Shown here one piece after another: positions 10,367 through 16,782 of a stretch of 29,281 bases of DNA; position 1 is the stretch's first letter; every line of letters starts with the position of its first letter. Source of the DNA: a virus (lineage: Duplodnaviria; Heunggongvirae; Uroviricota; Caudoviricetes). The position numbers and the translations under genes are program-made. Under the pieces are notes generated by a model. The model searched no databases and was not told the DNA's origin. It saw only the letters and a list, made by a program, of their open reading frames with translations. Where the stretch lies: the IMG/VR virus record IMGVR_UViG_2671180846_000020. One strand, given 5' to 3'.

Positions 10367-10666
10367 AAAAATTCCTTAATACTGATAACTTGGCGCACTA
10401 TACACACGTTCCTGAAGAAAGCTATAGTTTTTTGATGGGGTTGAAGATGGCTGGATGTCTAAAATAAACATTGCTTCATATGTTCAACTATGCGTTAATG
10501 ATTGCGTCGGTTTGAAGAACAGACGATATACGAAGTAGTTTACTAAAGCAGTTCTCATTTCAGGTGTTATTCACTTATTCCTTCTTTGAGTCTCTCCAAT
10601 TAAGTACGAAGTCGTTTCTGTTATGCAAACCATTTATGCCGAAAGGCTCAAGTTAAGGAATGTAGA

Positions 10667-10882
10667 ATGTCAAATAAAATGACTGGTTTAGTAAAATGGT
10701 TTAACGCTGATAAAGGTTTCGGCTTTATTTCTCCTGTTGATGGTAGTAAAGATGTGTTTGTGCATTTTTCTGCGATTCAGAATGATAATTATCGAACCTT
10801 ATTTGAAGGTCAAAAGGTTACCTTCTCTATAGAGAGAGGTGCTAAAGGTCCTGCAGCAGCAAATGTCATCATTACTGATTAA
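10667..10882 (+). CDS. cspB: cold shock protein CspB-like
   Basis: 71-aa protein [38 protein letters not shown]... with the RNP motifs of CspA-family proteins; long upstream leader. Confidence 0.8.
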
Positions 10883-11163
10883 AATTCATCGCTCGTCTGT
10901 ATACGATAACGAAGAAGGCTGATGCCTGAGTAGAGATACGGACAGAGTAGTGAATATTGGATCTCTTTAATAAAAAGTAAGGAGGTCCAATACATGAAAC
11001 AATGGCTAGCATATTTGGCAAAATCTTAATCAGGAAAAGTATGCTAACCATTGTGGTGAAGTGCAGGTTTGCTGCATGAATAGTTTCACAGCAGAAGCTA
11101 ACTGCTGGCATCGCAAAACAAAGTGCGTAAGTGGATGACTCCCACAAAAAGCACCACAATCTC

Positions 11164-12167: not shown

Positions 12168-13191
<1,024 letters not shown>

Positions 13192-13553
13192 GGTAATATT
13201 AAATCGGAACATTTACATCGCGGAATGTAAAATTTAAATAAAAAGGACTCTTCCATGAGCCAAAATTCCTGAAATCTTAAGGGTAAGATAAAAGGTCTTA
13301 ATCAGAATGACACGTTTTATTAATAAATAAAGCTATTCTTTCATTGCTGTGTTTTTCTTTACAAAAGTAATCCTTGCTATGGGTGGTTAATCATGCGTTA
13401 ATGGTGTTCTGGTTTGTTACAAATTTATCTGAAGCAGTCATTGTTATAATTTTATTATTTGTACCTCTTGAGATTTCCTTGTTGGTTTTTCTCTCTGATA
13501 TTTTTTTTCGGACCATTCTGCCCAAGGGCTAATTTCTTCAAAAGGTAATAATT

Positions 13554-13766
13554 ATGTCTAACAAAATGACTGGTTTAGTGAAATGGTTTAACCCTGAAAA
13601 AGGTTTTGGTTTCATCACGCCGAAAGATGGCAGCAAAGATGTGTTTGTCCATTTCTCAGCAATTCAGAGCAACGATTTCAAAACATTAACTGAGAATCAG
13701 GAAGTTGAATTTGGTATTGAGAACGGACCTAAAGGTCCTGCCGCTGTTCATGTAGTGGCGCTTTGA
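13554..13766 (+). CDS. cspI: cold shock protein CspI-like
   Basis: 70-aa protein [70 protein letters not shown]; long AT-rich leader upstream. Confidence 0.85.
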
Positions 13767-13967
13767 GGTAGACAATATTACAAACCATATTCACTTTAGA
13801 TGCCCGTGTTGTCATGGTTCCCAGTATAGAACATCATCTTTTGATGTTTCTGACATGAATCCTTTCGGGGCAAAATGTATCTTTTGTAAATCAATGATGA
13901 TTACATTTGATAATATTTCACAATACTTAAATGCCAGCCGTCTGTCGTTGGATTTAAAAAAGTGAAA

Positions 13968-13995
13968 ATGAAGGCTCCTTCGGGAGCTTTTTTGC
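13968..13995 (+). terminator. rho-independent terminator
   Basis: Hairpin GGCTCC-TTCG-GGAGC followed by TTTTTTGC. Confidence 0.6.
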
Positions 13996-14037
13996 TTGGT
14001 ATCTATTCGATGGATACTCACATACTACGGTAACATC

Positions 14038-14268
14038 ATGAAAAAAATCATAGTTTTTTTTAACTCTGAACCAGCAGTGGTAGTGCCAGCGATGACTGGA
14101 GTTAACACCATCATGCGTGAATATCCAAATGGCGAAAAAACACACCTTACTGTAATGGCCGCAGGGTTTCCATCTCTGACCGGAGATCATAAAGTCATTT
14201 ATGTAGCCGCGGATCGACATGTTACTTCAGAAGAAATTCTGGAAGCAGCAATAAGGCTCTTGAGTTGA
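14038..14268 (+). CDS. hypothetical small protein, 76 aa
   Basis: ORF beginning MKKIIVFFNSEPAVVVPAMTG; no recognisable motif. Confidence 0.45.
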   Translation: MKKIIVFFNSEPAVVVPAMTGVNTIMREYPNGEKTHLTVMAAGFPSLTGDHKVIYVAADRHVTSEEILEAAIRLLS

Positions 14269-14436
14269 TTTGATGCTATTGTATTGATAATTCAGGAAAA
14301 TTCTCTTTGTCTGTTTGTGTAAAATTTAGACTATCGTATGTTGATTATTGCGATGTTTCATCTTATCTTTTACACGTTTGCACCATATAATCGACTTACT
14401 GTGTAACTGGAAAGTCATAACAGACTAAAAGAGGAA

Positions 14437-14613
14437 ATGATGAATATTGAAAACTTAAAAACAAAAGCAGAAGCAGATATTTCTGAATATATAACAAAAA
14501 AAATTATTGAACTTAAGAAAAAGACCGGGAAAGAAGTTACCAGTATTCAGTTTACCGCACGGGAAAAAATGACGGGTCTTGAAAGCTATGATGTCAAGAT
14601 TAATTTAATCTGA
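14437..14613 (+). CDS. gnsB: GnsA/GnsB-family small protein (absent from the ORF track)
   Basis: Read directly: MMNIENLKTKAEADISEYITKKIIELKKKTGKEVTSIQFTAREKMTGLESYDVKINLI (58 aa from ATG 14437, 57 aa from ATG 14440), with an AAAAGAGGAA SD. Confidence 0.75.
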   Translation: MMNIENLKTKAEADISEYITKKIIELKKKTGKEVTSIQFTAREKMTGLESYDVKINLI

Positions 14614-14764
14614 TGTATTCAATAATAAAATTTATCCATAAACCTCGTTTTTTCGGGGTTTTGTTATATTTGAATGGTTCCGAATATCTAAATCACAATT
14701 GTTGATGGTTTTTATTAAACCAATGCAGTCCGGCTCAGGAGTGAGAGAAGCCGGACGTTATGGT

Positions 14765-15175
14765 TTAGCGTGGTAAGATCTGTGTAGTTTTCTGGATGCT
14801 TTCAGTAAATAGTAATGAGTTATCAAAGGCATAGTAATATCTTTGGTGTTCCTGGATATTTGTAACCCATCGGAAAACTCCTGCTTTAGCAAGATTTTCC
14901 CTGTATTGTTGAAATGTGATTTCTTTTGATTTCAACTTATTATAGGAGGTCTCTATAAGATGTTTGTTTCTGGAGAATTTAACATTTACAACCTTTTTGA
15001 GTCCTTTTACTAACACTATGTTGTCGTTTTCTAACACAATGTGAATATTATCTGTGGCTAAATAGTAAATATAAAGTGAGACATTGTGACGTTTTAGCTC
15101 AGAATAAAATAATTCACAGTTTAAATCTTTACGCACTTGATCGAATATTTCTTTAAAAATGGCAGCCTGAGCCAT
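14765..15175 (-). CDS. ydfO: YdfO-like protein (DUF1398 family)
   Basis: 136-aa protein starting [33 protein letters not shown]..., recognised as the Qin ydfO product. Confidence 0.75.
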
Positions 15176-15475
15176 TGGTAAACCTTCCATGTGATACGAT
15201 GGCGCGTAGTTAGCATTATCGTGTTTATTGTTTCAATCTGGTCTGACCTCTTTGTGTTTTGTTGATGATTTATGTCAAATATTAAGCCTGTTTTTAATGA
15301 ATAGTGTTGATTGCGTAACAAAATTGAGCCTTGCTGGCATCCAGGAGGGATATGCAACCGACAGATGTATGTAAGGTCGATGTACTCAAACTTTCATACT
15401 TTTCCTCTTTTATGCAGTAAGATTTGAAGTAATATTTTAACCGCTAGATGACGAGCAAACGCATGGAGCGACAAA

Positions 15476-15682
15476 ATGAATAAAGAACAATCTGCTGATG
15501 AAGTCTCGTTGGATCTGATTCGTGTAAAAAATATGCTTAATAGCACCATTTCTATGAGTTACCCGGATGTTGTAATTGCATGTATAGAACATCAGGTGTC
15601 TCTGGAAGCATTCAGGGCAATTGAGGCAGCGTTGGTGAAGCACGATAAGAATTCGAAGGATTATTCCCTGGTGGTTGACTGA
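15476..15682 (+). CDS. hypothetical small protein, 68 aa
   Basis: [29 protein letters not shown]...; no motif recognised. It lies just upstream of the cos region. Confidence 0.4.
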
Positions 15683-16006
15683 GCACCATAACTGCTAATC
15701 ATTCAAACTATTTCACCTGTGACAGAGTCAATATCGCATTCTGTCACTGTCAGGCTAATACAGAGCTGCAATTCAACTACTGCAATGTCCTCGTAATTAG
15801 GTGAATTTACAATATCGTCCTGTTCGGATGCCGGTTGCATTGCTGAAGATGAGGCATTTATGGTTCGCATATTTTCCCCTCATGCTCGTCAGTCCTGTGC
15901 GTAGGAAGAAACAGGACACTCACACTAATTTGTGTGGGCATGCTGTGATGTCCTTCTGAATTATTCCTATGCCATTATGTAAAGCGCTGTATCAGATGCT
16001 CATCAC

Positions 16007-16034
16007 GGCTGTCAGGCTGTCAGGCTGTCGGGTC
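16007..16034. repeat. three tandem copies of an 8-bp unit (GGCTGTCA/G) upstream of cos
   Basis: GGCTGTCAGGCTGTCAGGCTGTCGGG read directly in the sequence. Confidence 0.6.
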
Positions 16035-16039
16035 CTCCC

Positions 16040-16130
16040 GGTGGGGGCCCCTGCCACGGGGCGGGAGCGTCGCGGAAAAAGGCTAGTTTTTGCATTTCCA
16101 TGGCGGCGGCAGCATGTTTGGTAATTTATT
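16040..16130. other. lambda-like cohesive-end site (cosN near 16058-16069, with flanking cosB-like region)
   Basis: ACGGGGCGGGAGCGTCGCGG...TTTTTGCATTTCC resembles the lambda cos sequence ACGGGGCGGCGACCTCGCGGGTTTTCGC...AAATTTTCC, and lies about 190 nt upstream of the Nu1-like start, as in lambda. Confidence 0.5.
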
Positions 16131-16254
16131 GATAATTAAAAGTTATTTCTCTTTTCACCTGTACAATATTTCTTTCTCCCTGTCATTAGACCAGTTTGCA
16201 ATTAATTGAAATATATAAATAAACATGATTTTCACCTGCCAGATGGAGTTGCTT

Positions 16255-16782
16255 ATGTCAAATGTGAGCGGGATCGGTGATGCTTATTACTGGAGTGTTT
16301 TTAAAATCGCTGAGGCCTTTGGGCTTCACCGGGACACAGTAAAAAAACGGCTCCTCGCGGCTAACACTCCTGTGGCTGCGACTGTCAGGGGGAACCCCGT
16401 TTACGCCCTGCAGCATGTCGGGCCAGCCCTGTTTAGTGTGAAGCATGAGGCAGCAGACTCTGTTCATGATCCATCCCGTATGGAGCCGAAAGAGAGAAAG
16501 GACTGGTACCAATCTGAAAATGAAAGGATCAAGCTGGAAAAGGAGCAGCGAAAACTCATCCCCGTTGATGAAGTAGTCATCGTCTATTCGTCCATGAGAA
16601 AGGCTGTCGTCCAGGTTCTGGAGACAATTCCGGATGTTCTTGAACGCGATTGCGCCCTGACTCCTCAGGCCGTCGGCGTTGTACAGCAGGCCATTGATGA
16701 CCTGCGATACACTCTTCAGGAAAAATCCTACGAGGCTTGTGCTGCTGAATTAATTCCTGATGAGGAAGGAGAGAGTCTCTAG
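16255..16782 (+). CDS. terminase small subunit (Nu1-like)
   Basis: First gene after cos, about 175 aa, with an N-terminal DNA-binding-like region; GGAG SD; directly precedes the large terminase. Confidence 0.75.
   Translation: MSNVSGIGDAYYWSVFKIAEAFGLHRDTVKKRLLAANTPVAATVRGNPVYALQHVGPALFSVKHEAADSVHDPSRMEPKERKDWYQSENERIKLEKEQRKLIPVDEVVIVYSSMRKAVVQVLETIPDVLERDCALTPQAVGVVQQAIDDLRYTLQEKSYEACAAELIPDEEGESL

Follow-up and report, generated by a model that had tools for sequence, protein, structure and literature searches.

Small genes between the spanin gene and cos of a Qin-type Escherichia coli prophage: a likely junction of two described accessory modules

What are the small genes that lie between the lysis cassette and the cos site of a lambdoid prophage, and do they form a single cluster? 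The question is raised by a window of 29,281 nucleotides (the whole stretch of DNA analysed here; IMG/VR record IMGVR_UViG_2671180846_000020), in which an initial annotation, made from the sequence alone, described four small genes in mixed orientation: a 76-aa ORF, a GnsA/GnsB-family gene, a gene for a DUF1398 protein, and a 68-aa ORF. The whole window is 100% identical at the nucleotide level to O26:H11 genomes, including NC_013361, and, on these sequence grounds, represents a lambdoid prophage of the Qin type from E. coli O26:H11. All four ORFs are found where they had been placed, and the RefSeq annotation of the identical record, which lists cspI, ynfQ, ynfR, ynfN, gnsB, DUF1398, and a hypothetical gene, covers each of them; the exact protein sequence of each is carried by at least 1000 public contigs. 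The finding is ordinary because all four are already known and named E. coli prophage genes (ynfN, gnsB, the ybcV/ydfO-type DUF1398 gene, and ybcW), two of which are present also in phage lambda. Most likely, two accessory modules, both described before, meet here and together occupy the space between Rz and cos of a Qin-type prophage. The evidence for this reading consists of sequence identities, synteny, conservation, RNA elements, and the published phenotypes of orthologues that are identical or at least 90% identical.

The initial annotation assumed that a lambda-type phage normally goes straight from the lysis genes to cos. This assumption does not hold: in lambda itself, Rz is separated from cos by 2.07 kb with three genes, bor, lambdap78 (DUF1398), and lambdap79 (YbcW), and the conserved lambdap78 and lambdap79 have orthologues in the window. 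The count of four genes is too low as well, given that the Rz-to-cos interval of the window, where the spanin gene rzpQ ends at 13191, contains, besides the four small ORFs, cspI, ynfQ, ynfR, and a conserved ORF of 55 aa on the minus strand (hereafter, orf55). The right-hand limit of the interval was placed using the sequenced Escherichia phage Tritos (OV696610), which has the same gene content and is 99.7% identical over the entire 1.9-kb interval. The linear Tritos record ends (...CCCCTGCCACG) at the equivalent of window position 16058 and starts (GGGCGGGAGCGTCGCGG) at 16059 with the cohesive-end sequence, which differs from that of phage lambda, GGGCGGCGACCT. The terminase also is of a different type, Nu1 in lambda but DUF1441 in the window. 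The features of the interval and its surroundings are the following:

13408..13793, plus strand: cspA-type thermoregulator comprising the 5'UTR and coding region of cspI (Rfam RF01766)
13554-13766, plus strand: cspI coding sequence, product 100% identical to K-12 CspI
13777..13965, plus strand: ynfQ, YmcF-like small cold-shock protein (RefSeq; Pfam YmcF-like, E = 1e-11)
13968..14033, plus strand: ynfR, 21-aa ORF (RefSeq annotation)
14038-14268, plus strand: ynfN, intact 76-aa form (phrog_3425)
14440-14613, plus strand: gnsB, 57 aa, or 58 aa if the ATG is at 14437 (PF08178)
14640-14671: intrinsic terminator 3' of gnsB (terminator scan; folds at -9.7 kcal/mol)
14728..14756: strong hairpin between the convergent gnsB and DUF1398 genes (-20.3 kcal/mol, z = -5.2)
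14765-15175 or 15190, minus strand: DUF1398 gene, 136 or 141 aa (PF07166)
15236..15252: PdhR-type (GntR-family) operator ATCTGGTCTGACCTCTT in the divergent ybcV/ybcW control region (17-mer match)
15476-15682, plus strand: ybcW, 68 aa, co-oriented with the late operon (phrog_657)
15703..15870, minus strand: orf55, acidic 55-aa ORF (phrog_4035)
16059..16070, plus strand: cohesive-end sequence GGGCGGGAGCGT at cos (from the ends of the Tritos record)
16255-16782: small terminase gene, 3' of cos (matches DUF1441 and phrog_141)

Comparison with 80 related IMG/VR loci indicates that the four genes, which had been taken for one cluster, belong to two separate modules. The order is Rz(DUF2514)-cspI-ynfQ-ynfN-gnsB-[DUF1398]-ybcW in 48 of these loci and the lambda-type Rz-[bor]-[DUF1398]-ybcW in the other 32; that is, ybcV/ybcW stays the same throughout, and what changes is the cassette upstream of it, either bor or cspI-to-gnsB. 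A moron, in the sense of Hendrix and colleagues, is an extra gene unit in a lambdoid genome that is absent between genes adjacent in relatives, and that has its own promoter and terminator as well as a deviant base composition. The cspI-to-gnsB cassette swaps with bor, contains terminators, and deviates in GC content, the accessory region being AT-rich (34-38% GC vs 44-56% in the flanks). Its promoters were not confidently identified: a consensus promoter scan yielded fewer sites than in shuffled sequence, with none confident for ynfN-gnsB, ybcV, or ybcW. A perfect TATAAT at 14386-14391, accompanied by no good -35 element, may be a promoter of gnsB itself. The hairpin at 14728-14756, which none of 200 shuffled sequences matched in folding, is probably a bidirectional transcription stop.

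The downstream module is the one shared with lambda, with 89.5% nucleotide identity between window positions 14746-15828 and lambda 47023-48090 (1.08 kb). Both lambda and DLP12 (borD, ybcV, ybcW, ylcI) resemble the window in the divergent pair of DUF1398 and 68-aa genes, the control region, and the place before cos, and differ from it in that bor replaces the cspI-to-gnsB cassette and ylcI (DUF3950) occupies the position of orf55. The proposal that the site carries host-interaction cargo stands insofar as these are non-structural accessory genes in the lambdoid cargo slot; compared with lambda, the four genes do not represent a special insertion, the DUF1398 and 68-aa genes being orthologues of lambdap78 and lambdap79.

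The DUF1398 protein covers the entire PF07166 profile (positions 1-119 of 119; 147.9 bits, cut-off 22) and matches the solved YdfO structure, PDB 2HH8, with E = 1e-69; in a PDB profile search with the DUF1398 alignment, 2HH8 was the sole match. The likely start codon is the ATG at 15175, preceded by the Shine-Dalgarno sequence GGAAGG, with the ATG at 15190 as the alternative. The protein had been called YdfO-like but is nearer to YbcV and lambda lambdap78 (90% identity) than to YdfO (78%); judging by these identities, the gene is the orthologue of ybcV/lambdap78 and a paralogue of ydfO. The pN/pS values of 0.17-0.26 point to purifying selection, and CRISPRi on lambdap78 scored the lambda gene as non-essential, with plating unaffected. 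A search of 185,579 species genomes with the DUF1398 alignment returned mainly lambda control-DNA contamination along with Escherichia, Shigella, and Citrobacter, and no informative contexts.

YbcW matches phrog_657 with E = 7e-47 and is 91% identical over all 68 residues to lambdap79 and K-12 YbcW, with 6 of the 68 residues different from lambda. The gene, divergent from the DUF1398 gene and located just upstream of cos, is syntenic in 78 of the 80 IMG/VR loci. An exhaustive HMMER search for distant relatives produced 164 matches, the aligned subset of which consisted mostly of error-ridden lambda copies; the true homologues seen in this subset extended only down to ~40-54% identity. An identification of the 68-aa ORF as YnfO was rejected: YnfO is a DUF3950 protein encoded on the opposite strand.

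The control region between ybcV and ybcW contains a PdhR box, TGGTCTGACC, with one match to the 17-mer in the window vs 0.01 expected. The same 17-mer is the gSELEX PdhR site of DLP12 ybcV/ybcW, and in a pdhR mutant, ybcV and ybcW mRNAs decrease 10- and 8.9-fold, respectively (PMC7660256). The 17-mer is exactly conserved in 78 of the 80 IMG/VR loci, in Tritos, and in DLP12; the lambda box differs from that in the window by one flanking base. The site overlaps the probable ybcV promoter, a layout that suits repression better than the activation published for it (PMC7660256). Under the preferred, two-module reading, ybcV and ybcW would be transcribed divergently from the conserved control region of ~300 bp that contains this operator. 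The DUF1398 gene runs antisense to the late operon and so would be expressed in the lysogen, like bor; ybcW lies on the late-operon strand and therefore would be made also late in infection. At that stage, Vulcan, an abortive-infection system with NADase activity, appears to sense the lambda orthologue of YbcW: in a 2026 preprint, so far the single source and limited to the lambda allele, lambdap79 triggers the Vulcan NADase (NIR-NADase) defence, has been lost by deletion from 7 of 7 Vulcan escapers, and causes toxicity upon co-expression with Vulcan. Given this report of lambdap79 as the trigger of a NAD-depleting defence, O26 prophages of this type as well as Tritos may also be sensed. With CRISPRi on lambdap79, the efficiency of plating is 3e-4; lambdap79 being a known non-essential gene, this value is compatible with a polar effect on the late transcript.

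Could ybcV/ybcW, perhaps, together with orf55, be counter-defence or superinfection-exclusion cargo, such that Vulcan detects YbcW as an effector acting on a host or defence target? The pair occupies a known cargo slot and is conserved in lambda, DLP12, Tritos, and the 80 IMG/VR loci; lambdap79 is a defence trigger; and the AlphaFold2 model of YbcW (pLDDT 78) is a predicted three-helix bundle, a common protein-binding scaffold. Moreover, the substitutions between the window and lambda YbcW are mostly non-synonymous (8 vs 3 synonymous; pN/pS 0.7-1.1), although the numbers involved are insufficient to test for selection; with low probability, the excess reflects escape from Vulcan-type sensors. 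However, PADLOC found no convincing matches among all the small proteins, its single weak match (REase_II to DUF1398, E = 2e-4) being dismissed as noise seen in two of the four paralogues. No phenotype has been reported; a ybcV paralogue, ycgX, resides outside prophages, adjoining bluR; and PdhR control hints at a link to host physiology. On balance, we consider a counter-defence role unlikely.

The upstream module of the preferred reading is larger than originally perceived: ynfN and gnsB form the distal end of an operon, cspI-ynfQ-ynfR-ynfN-gnsB, that begins ~450 bp upstream of the interval first delimited, so that its cold-shock head, cspI, had been left outside. The covariance model RF01766 detects the cspA-type element over cspI with 112.8 bits (gathering score 78). 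YnfQ, which contains a CxxC...CxxC motif and has a non-ATG start codon, is 100% identical to K-12 YnfQ and 66% identical to YmcF. The Qin prophage of K-12 (cspI-ynfQ-ynfR-ynfN-gnsB-ydfO-ynfO) resembles the window in gene order and strands from cspI through the DUF1398 gene, in protein sequence (CspI, YnfQ, and GnsB, 100% identical; YnfR, 95%), and in the upstream lysis genes essQ, ydfR, rrrQ, and rzpQ. In contrast to the window, the DUF1398 protein of Qin is YdfO, just 78% identical, ybcW and orf55 are missing, ynfO (DUF3950) lies immediately upstream of ydfO, and the packaging genes are deleted. The chromosomal cspG-ymcF-ymcE-gnsA of K-12 is a paralogous unit in which the order is kept (csp, 79% aa identity; ymcF/ynfQ, 66%; hairpin; gns, 65%). 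The cspG-ymcF-hairpin-gnsA sequence aligns with the window base for base, save for an insertion of ~400 bp in the prophage copy that contains ynfN and a spacer and in place of which the chromosome has the overlapping ymcE ORF.

The first codons of ynfR overlap an intrinsic terminator hairpin at 13970-13993 (stem GAAGGCUCC, loop UUCG, U6 run; -14.5 kcal/mol, z = -2.8). This overlap of an ORF with a terminator is a small new observation. In K-12, SPA-tagged YnfR is strongly induced by cold shock (PMC6001520). The K-12 genes cspI, ynfQ, and ynfN respond together (induction of 6.5-, 5.9-, and 5.8-fold, respectively), and their dependence on SspA is 38-, 42-, and 51-fold.

The ynfN gene starts 4 nt past the ynfR stop codon, with no clear Shine-Dalgarno sequence, and its product matches phrog_3425 over positions 1-76 of 76 (E = 7e-54). 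A T8 run lies inside the gene at 14054-14061; K-12 ynfN has a 1-bp deletion, T7 for T8, and is annotated in a truncated, C-terminal 51-aa form, to which the C-terminal 51 aa of the window protein are 100% identical. On this comparison, what is annotated as ynfN in K-12 seems to be the remainder of an intact 76-aa gene after a frameshift, a small new point that bears on the annotation of a reference genome; the Tritos record likewise gives ynfN in the 51-aa form and leaves ynfR and orf55 unannotated. Full-length homologues consist of 75-76 aa, with identity as low as 52% (72-76% for the 76-aa Citrobacter homologues), and M1, K3, and V6-F7-F8-N9 at the N-terminus are invariant. YnfN is predicted to be a small beta-rich domain (AlphaFold2, pLDDT 88.7) limited to prophages of Escherichia and Citrobacter. 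A fold search with this model matched no known fold, another small new point; PDB sequence searches with YnfN and YbcW gave no matches, and the fold searches with the models of the two proteins gave no inferable function.

The gnsB gene was indeed missed by the ORF track of the initial annotation: at 57 aa, it falls below a 60-aa ORF filter. The protein spans the whole Pfam GnsAB_toxin profile, PF08178 (positions 1-54 of 54; 120.2 bits, cut-off 27), is 100% identical to K-12 GnsB and 65% identical to GnsA (PDB 4XO1, 4XO2), and matches the GnsA crystal structure 4XO2 with E = 6e-20. Overexpressed K-12 GnsB is reported (Sugai 2001) to increase the content of unsaturated fatty acids, to rescue cold-sensitive mutants, and to act as a suppressor of both fabA6(Ts) and the cold sensitivity of a secG null mutant. 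Furthermore, growth of a cold-sensitive relA fadR mutant is recovered with pCA-gnsB, and gnsA brings back the 16:1 and 18:1 fatty acids; all GnsB phenotypes come from multicopy expression. The functions of the four genes had been described as essentially unknown; with the lipid effect of GnsB, the sensing of lambdap79 by Vulcan, and the dependence on PdhR all published, this description holds only in part.

These observations suggest how the upstream module might work. The cspA-type promoter and the thermosensor in the cspI 5'UTR would set its transcription and translation, and the terminator inside the ynfR ORF would divide the proximal from the distal genes. Read-through in the cold, plausibly aided by RNA-melting Csp proteins encoded by the same transcript, and during lytic growth, via Q antitermination, would allow expression of YnfR, YnfN, and GnsB, with translation of ynfN probably coupled to that of ynfR. 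Once made, GnsB shifts the membrane lipids toward unsaturated fatty acids, an effect by which the module would help maintain membrane function at low temperature in the lysogen or the infected cell. A compact system combining a csp gene, a micro-ORF embedded in a terminator, and a lipid modulator raises the question whether prophages help their hosts in the cold, which bears on the persistence of O26 STEC outside the gut.

A stronger version of this scheme, to which we assign a low probability, is that the hairpin in the ynfR frame is a self-contained cold switch and YnfN works with GnsB, as a new partner or modulator, to remodel the membrane lipids. At 37 C, the hairpin would terminate the cspI-ynfQ transcript and mask the ynfR start codon; in the cold, Csp RNA chaperones translated from their own mRNA would melt it, permitting both read-through and ynfR translation, which, in turn, would drive translation of ynfN and then of gnsB.

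Less probable still is that gnsB and its upstream partner ynfN form a toxin-antitoxin addiction module that stabilises the prophage. The idea is suggested by the Pfam family name and by the RefSeq label 'GnsA/GnsB family addiction module toxin', by the listing of ymcE-gnsA among the E. coli type II toxin-antitoxin pairs, and by the location of ynfN upstream of gnsB, as ymcE is upstream of gnsA. However, the window encodes no YmcE homologue, of which just the hairpin-encoded N-terminal stretch is left, as ynfR; YnfN shows no similarity to YmcE; and plasmid-borne gnsB rescues growth, with no killing. Furthermore, ynfN is frameshifted in 7 of 49 loci (K-12 and 6 others), and 5 of these 7 retain an intact gnsB; therefore, YnfN cannot be a required antidote, and we reject it as the obligatory antitoxin of GnsB.

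It is scarcely credible that any of the ORFs is a piece of a structural gene or encodes a virion protein: the 'head protein' label of phrog_413 and of lambdap78 in NC_001416 goes back to a GeneMark prediction in the lambda record that carries no supporting note, each of the four ORFs spans the full length of its family, and, for the DUF1398 protein, a head role is rejected given the antisense orientation of the gene, the unchanged plating upon lambdap78 knock-down, the compact solved domain, and the chromosomal paralogue outside prophages.

Finally, orf55 matches phrog_4035 over its full length (E = 1e-41) and has a Shine-Dalgarno sequence, GAGGGG, 5 nt before the ATG; in lambda, its counterpart is only a decayed remnant. 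It is found in most of the related loci and is intact in all 39 full-length copies. At least 1000 contigs encode an identical protein, yet the RefSeq record carries no annotation for it, so that orf55 represents one more small new point.

All genes between the lysis cassette and cos either are already known and named or are closely orthologous to such a gene, and their arrangement is a Qin cassette joined to the right-end gene pair of lambda and DLP12, which Escherichia phage Tritos (OV696610) carries almost unchanged. The additions made here are modest: a frameshift as the origin of the shortened YnfN of K-12, a YnfN model of high confidence that matches no known fold, the terminator-embedded layout of ynfR, a conserved PdhR box in the window, an unannotated 55-aa ORF (orf55), and a tie between the 68-aa ORF and a newly reported trigger of the Vulcan defence. 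The four small ORFs claimed in the initial annotation are all present at the positions that it gave:

14038-14268, plus strand: ynfN, 76 aa; 100% identical to K-12 YnfN across the C-terminal 51 residues
14440-14613, plus strand: gnsB, 57 aa, or 58 aa from an ATG 3 bases upstream; 100% identical to K-12 GnsB
14765-15175 or 15190, minus strand: DUF1398 gene, 136 or 141 aa; 90% identical to DLP12 YbcV and lambda lambdap78, 78% to Qin YdfO (PDB 2HH8)
15476-15682, plus strand: ybcW, 68 aa; 91% identical to DLP12 YbcW and lambda lambdap79

The 57-aa protein matches Pfam GnsAB_toxin (120 bits) and the minus-strand protein Pfam DUF1398 (148 bits); in the Pfam search, no family was found for the 76-aa and 68-aa proteins. 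All four have full-length PHROGs matches, and the exact sequence of each is present on at least 1000 public contigs.

Window positions 13500-16250 are 100% identical to many Escherichia coli O26:H11 chromosomes (for example, NC_013361.1, 2145045-2147795). Among 5426 complete E. coli genomes, 3411 contain pieces of this segment and 440 carry at least 80% of it. In the RefSeq annotation of NC_013361.1, the locus is a Qin-type lambdoid prophage in which cspF and cspB are followed by the lysis genes essD, ydfR, rrrQ and rzpQ, then by cspI, ynfQ, ynfR, ynfN and gnsB, the DUF1398 gene on the opposite strand, a 68-aa hypothetical protein, the DUF1441 small terminase, the large terminase and the portal. 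Tritos is 99.7% identical to the window across the interval, and its linear record opens with GGGCGGGAGCGTCGCGG and closes with ...CCCCTGCCACG, termini that are contiguous at window 16058/16059, where the cos-region sequence is similar to lambda GGGCGGCGACCTCGCGG; the placement of the cluster between lysis cassette and cos is thus borne out. The small terminase ORF has two possible starts, 16225 (185 aa) and 16255; only the latter, used by both RefSeq and Tritos, has a GGAG Shine-Dalgarno sequence in front of it.

The contrast originally drawn with lambda, namely, that in a lambda-type phage cos normally follows the lysis genes directly, is wrong. In NC_001416, 2.07 kb separate the end of Rz (46427) from the genome end (48502), and this segment encompasses bor, lambdap78 (DUF1398, 47042-47575, minus strand) and lambdap79 (47738-47944, plus strand). 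Given that window 14746-15828 is 89.5% identical at the nucleotide level to lambda 47023-48090, two of the four putative accessory genes are lambda's own. A reading of the 68-aa ORF as YnfO can also be discarded: K-12 YnfO and DLP12 YlcI are DUF3950 proteins encoded on the other strand, and the window contains no DUF3950 protein. The gene list was also incomplete, missing ynfQ, the 21-aa ynfR and the minus-strand orf55, and the delimitation of a single cluster at 13996-15700 fails for ynfN and gnsB, whose unit begins outside it, at cspI.

We surveyed the neighbours of the DUF1398 gene in 80 IMG/VR loci whose DUF1398 product shares at least 91% identity with that of the window. The window arrangement, Rz(DUF2514)-cspI-ynfQ-ynfN-gnsB-[DUF1398]-ybcW-[orf55]-TerS(DUF1441), is found in 48 of these, and the lambda/DLP12 arrangement, lambda-type Rz-[bor]-[DUF1398]-ybcW-([orf55])-[ylcI]-Nu1, in the other 32. 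The constant core is the ybcV/ybcW pair, and the slot between Rz and ybcV is filled by either bor or the cold-shock cassette. With the core constant, the upstream slot variable and the region AT-rich (GC 34-38% in the interval vs 44-56% in the flanks), the proposal of a slot for host-interaction cargo fits ynfN and gnsB, whose cassette alternates with bor, but not the DUF1398 gene and ybcW, which are conserved at the lambda right end.

The cassette opens with cspI, which carries an Rfam cspA thermoregulator (13408-13793, 112.8 bits; gathering score 78). In an alignment with the K-12 chromosomal locus cspG-ymcF-ymcE-gnsA, four elements have a counterpart, namely csp gene, ymcF/ynfQ gene, hairpin and gns gene; the prophage copy differs from the chromosomal one by an insertion of ~400 bp bearing ynfN. 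The hairpin (13970-13993), with its UUCG loop, U6 tail and folding energy of -14.5 kcal/mol, resembles a canonical intrinsic terminator. The 21-aa ynfR ORF (13968-14033) encloses this hairpin and has its AUG at the stem base; the homologous hairpin in K-12 encodes the N-terminus of YmcE. The ynfR stop codon is separated by 4 nt from the ynfN start, the context of which contains no evident Shine-Dalgarno sequence. In K-12, YnfR-SPA rises strongly upon cold shock from a level that is otherwise barely detectable (PMC6001520), and cspI, ynfQ and ynfN are induced by AZT 6.5-, 5.9- and 5.8-fold and show a parallel SspA dependence of 38-, 42- and 51-fold, respectively (PMC11228462). These published data are consistent with a single regulated unit. 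We infer that the cassette would be induced in the cold, with the embedded terminator gating the distal ynfR-ynfN-gnsB segment and ynfR possibly coupled to ynfN; read-through would occur in the cold, perhaps with help from Csp proteins, and also under Q antitermination during lytic growth. Csp proteins have established antiterminator activity. Another, strong hairpin (14728-14756, -20.3 kcal/mol, z = -5.2) lies between the convergent gnsB and DUF1398 genes, and a perfect TATAAT (14386-14391) in the 168-bp ynfN-gnsB spacer, with no recognisable -35 element, might serve gnsB as a promoter of its own. Over cspB, from which cspF is divergent, lies a second cspA thermoregulator (161.6 bits; 10506-10898 and upstream). 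Three csp genes flank the lysis cassette, and relBE and hokD are also carried, according to the annotation of locus L001.

The YnfN family comprises just 60 clusters, all from Escherichia and Citrobacter; its full-length members (75-76 aa) go down to 52% identity, with the N-terminal residues M1, K3 and V6-F7-F8-N9 invariant. A homopolymer is T8 in the window (14054-14061) and T7 in K-12 MG1655; the annotated 51-aa K-12 YnfN is thus a frameshift remnant of a gene that is intact in the window. The run is T8 in 42 related loci and T7 in 7. The AlphaFold2 model (pLDDT 88.7) consists of five beta strands and a C-terminal helix, includes the N-terminal strand absent from K-12 YnfN, and matches no known fold.

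A gnsB plasmid relieves the growth defect that relA fadR cells show at low temperature, as gnsA does too, and with gnsA the 16:1 and 18:1 fatty acids are restored (bioRxiv 2024.03.27.586906). Earlier work, cited there and in PMC10607373, showed that both gns genes increase the content of unsaturated fatty acids and act as suppressors of fabA6(Ts) and a secG null. For the window gene, claims on mechanism derive from the literature on identical or at least 90%-identical orthologues. The label 'addiction module toxin' is unsupported here because 5 of the 7 T7 loci, in which ynfN is frameshifted, keep gnsB intact and the interval contains no YmcE homologue. In two IMG/VR loci (L023 and L026), both also T7 in ynfN, gnsB is frameshifted at an A8 run (14467-14474), which may reflect real slippage or homopolymer sequencing errors.

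The divergent control region of ybcV and ybcW (~300 bp) is ~90% conserved among the window, Tritos, DLP12 and lambda. It contains ATCTGGTCTGACCTCTT (15236-15252), the very sequence of the PdhR gSELEX site known from the region between ybcV and ybcW in DLP12; loss of pdhR lowers the mRNAs of these two genes 10- and 8.9-fold (PMC7660256). This 17-mer is exact in 78 of the 80 IMG/VR loci and occurs once in the window (0.01 expected). By analogy with these identical or at least 90%-identical orthologues, the pair would be under PdhR control. Expression of ybcV may be specific to lysogens. The DUF1398 gene, antisense to the late operon, is under purifying selection (pN/pS 0.17-0.26), and CRISPRi knock-down of lambdap78, which scores as non-essential, leaves plating unaffected. 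The designation 'head protein' (phrog_413, lambdap78) sits on a GeneMark prediction with no visible support. The 177-aa lambdap78 annotated under this name in lambda (NC_001416, 47042-47575) is probably over-extended, and both name and start codon look wrong, because a 1-bp indel throws the upstream stretch out of frame in the window and the conserved start, which is MAQ in YbcV-type copies, has the Shine-Dalgarno sequence GGAAGG in front of it.

The ybcW orthologue of lambda has been linked to the Vulcan NIR-NADase defence: all 7 of 7 lambda-vir escapers deleted lambdap79 via recombination with the MG1655 Qin prophage, and co-expression of lambdap79 with Vulcan is toxic (September 2026 preprint). 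In our comparison, K-12 Qin lacks ybcW, in agreement with this route of loss. The window product differs from that of lambda at 6 of 68 residues, and the genes by 8 non-synonymous and 3 synonymous differences, too few to argue selection; Vulcan sensing by the window allele, at least 90% identical, is suggested by the literature on the lambda orthologue. CRISPRi of lambdap79 reduces plating to 3e-4, though the gene is known as dispensable; our interpretation is polarity along the late transcript toward cos and the head genes, and the CRISPRi paper treats polarity in general terms. The YbcW model is a three-helix bundle (pLDDT 78) with only generic structural matches, and homologues reach down only to ~40-54% identity once sequencing-error variants of the lambda sequence are excluded. 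Contigs of lambda (~3.5 kb or 48.5 kb; L091-L125) occur in many 'genomes' of unrelated taxa (Kitasatospora, Brevibacillus, Flavobacterium, Cohnella and others), probably as contamination from sequencing controls; like error-laden copies in metagenomes, they make YbcW and DUF1398 seem more diverse than they are.

Downstream of ybcW lies orf55, unannotated in both the RefSeq O26:H11 and the Tritos records:

15703-15870, minus strand: orf55, 55 aa, acidic; full-length match to phrog_4035 (1e-41); GAGGGG Shine-Dalgarno sequence

Not one of the 39 full-length copies among related loci is disrupted, and the exact protein is present on at least 1000 public contigs, whereas lambda keeps only a decayed remnant.
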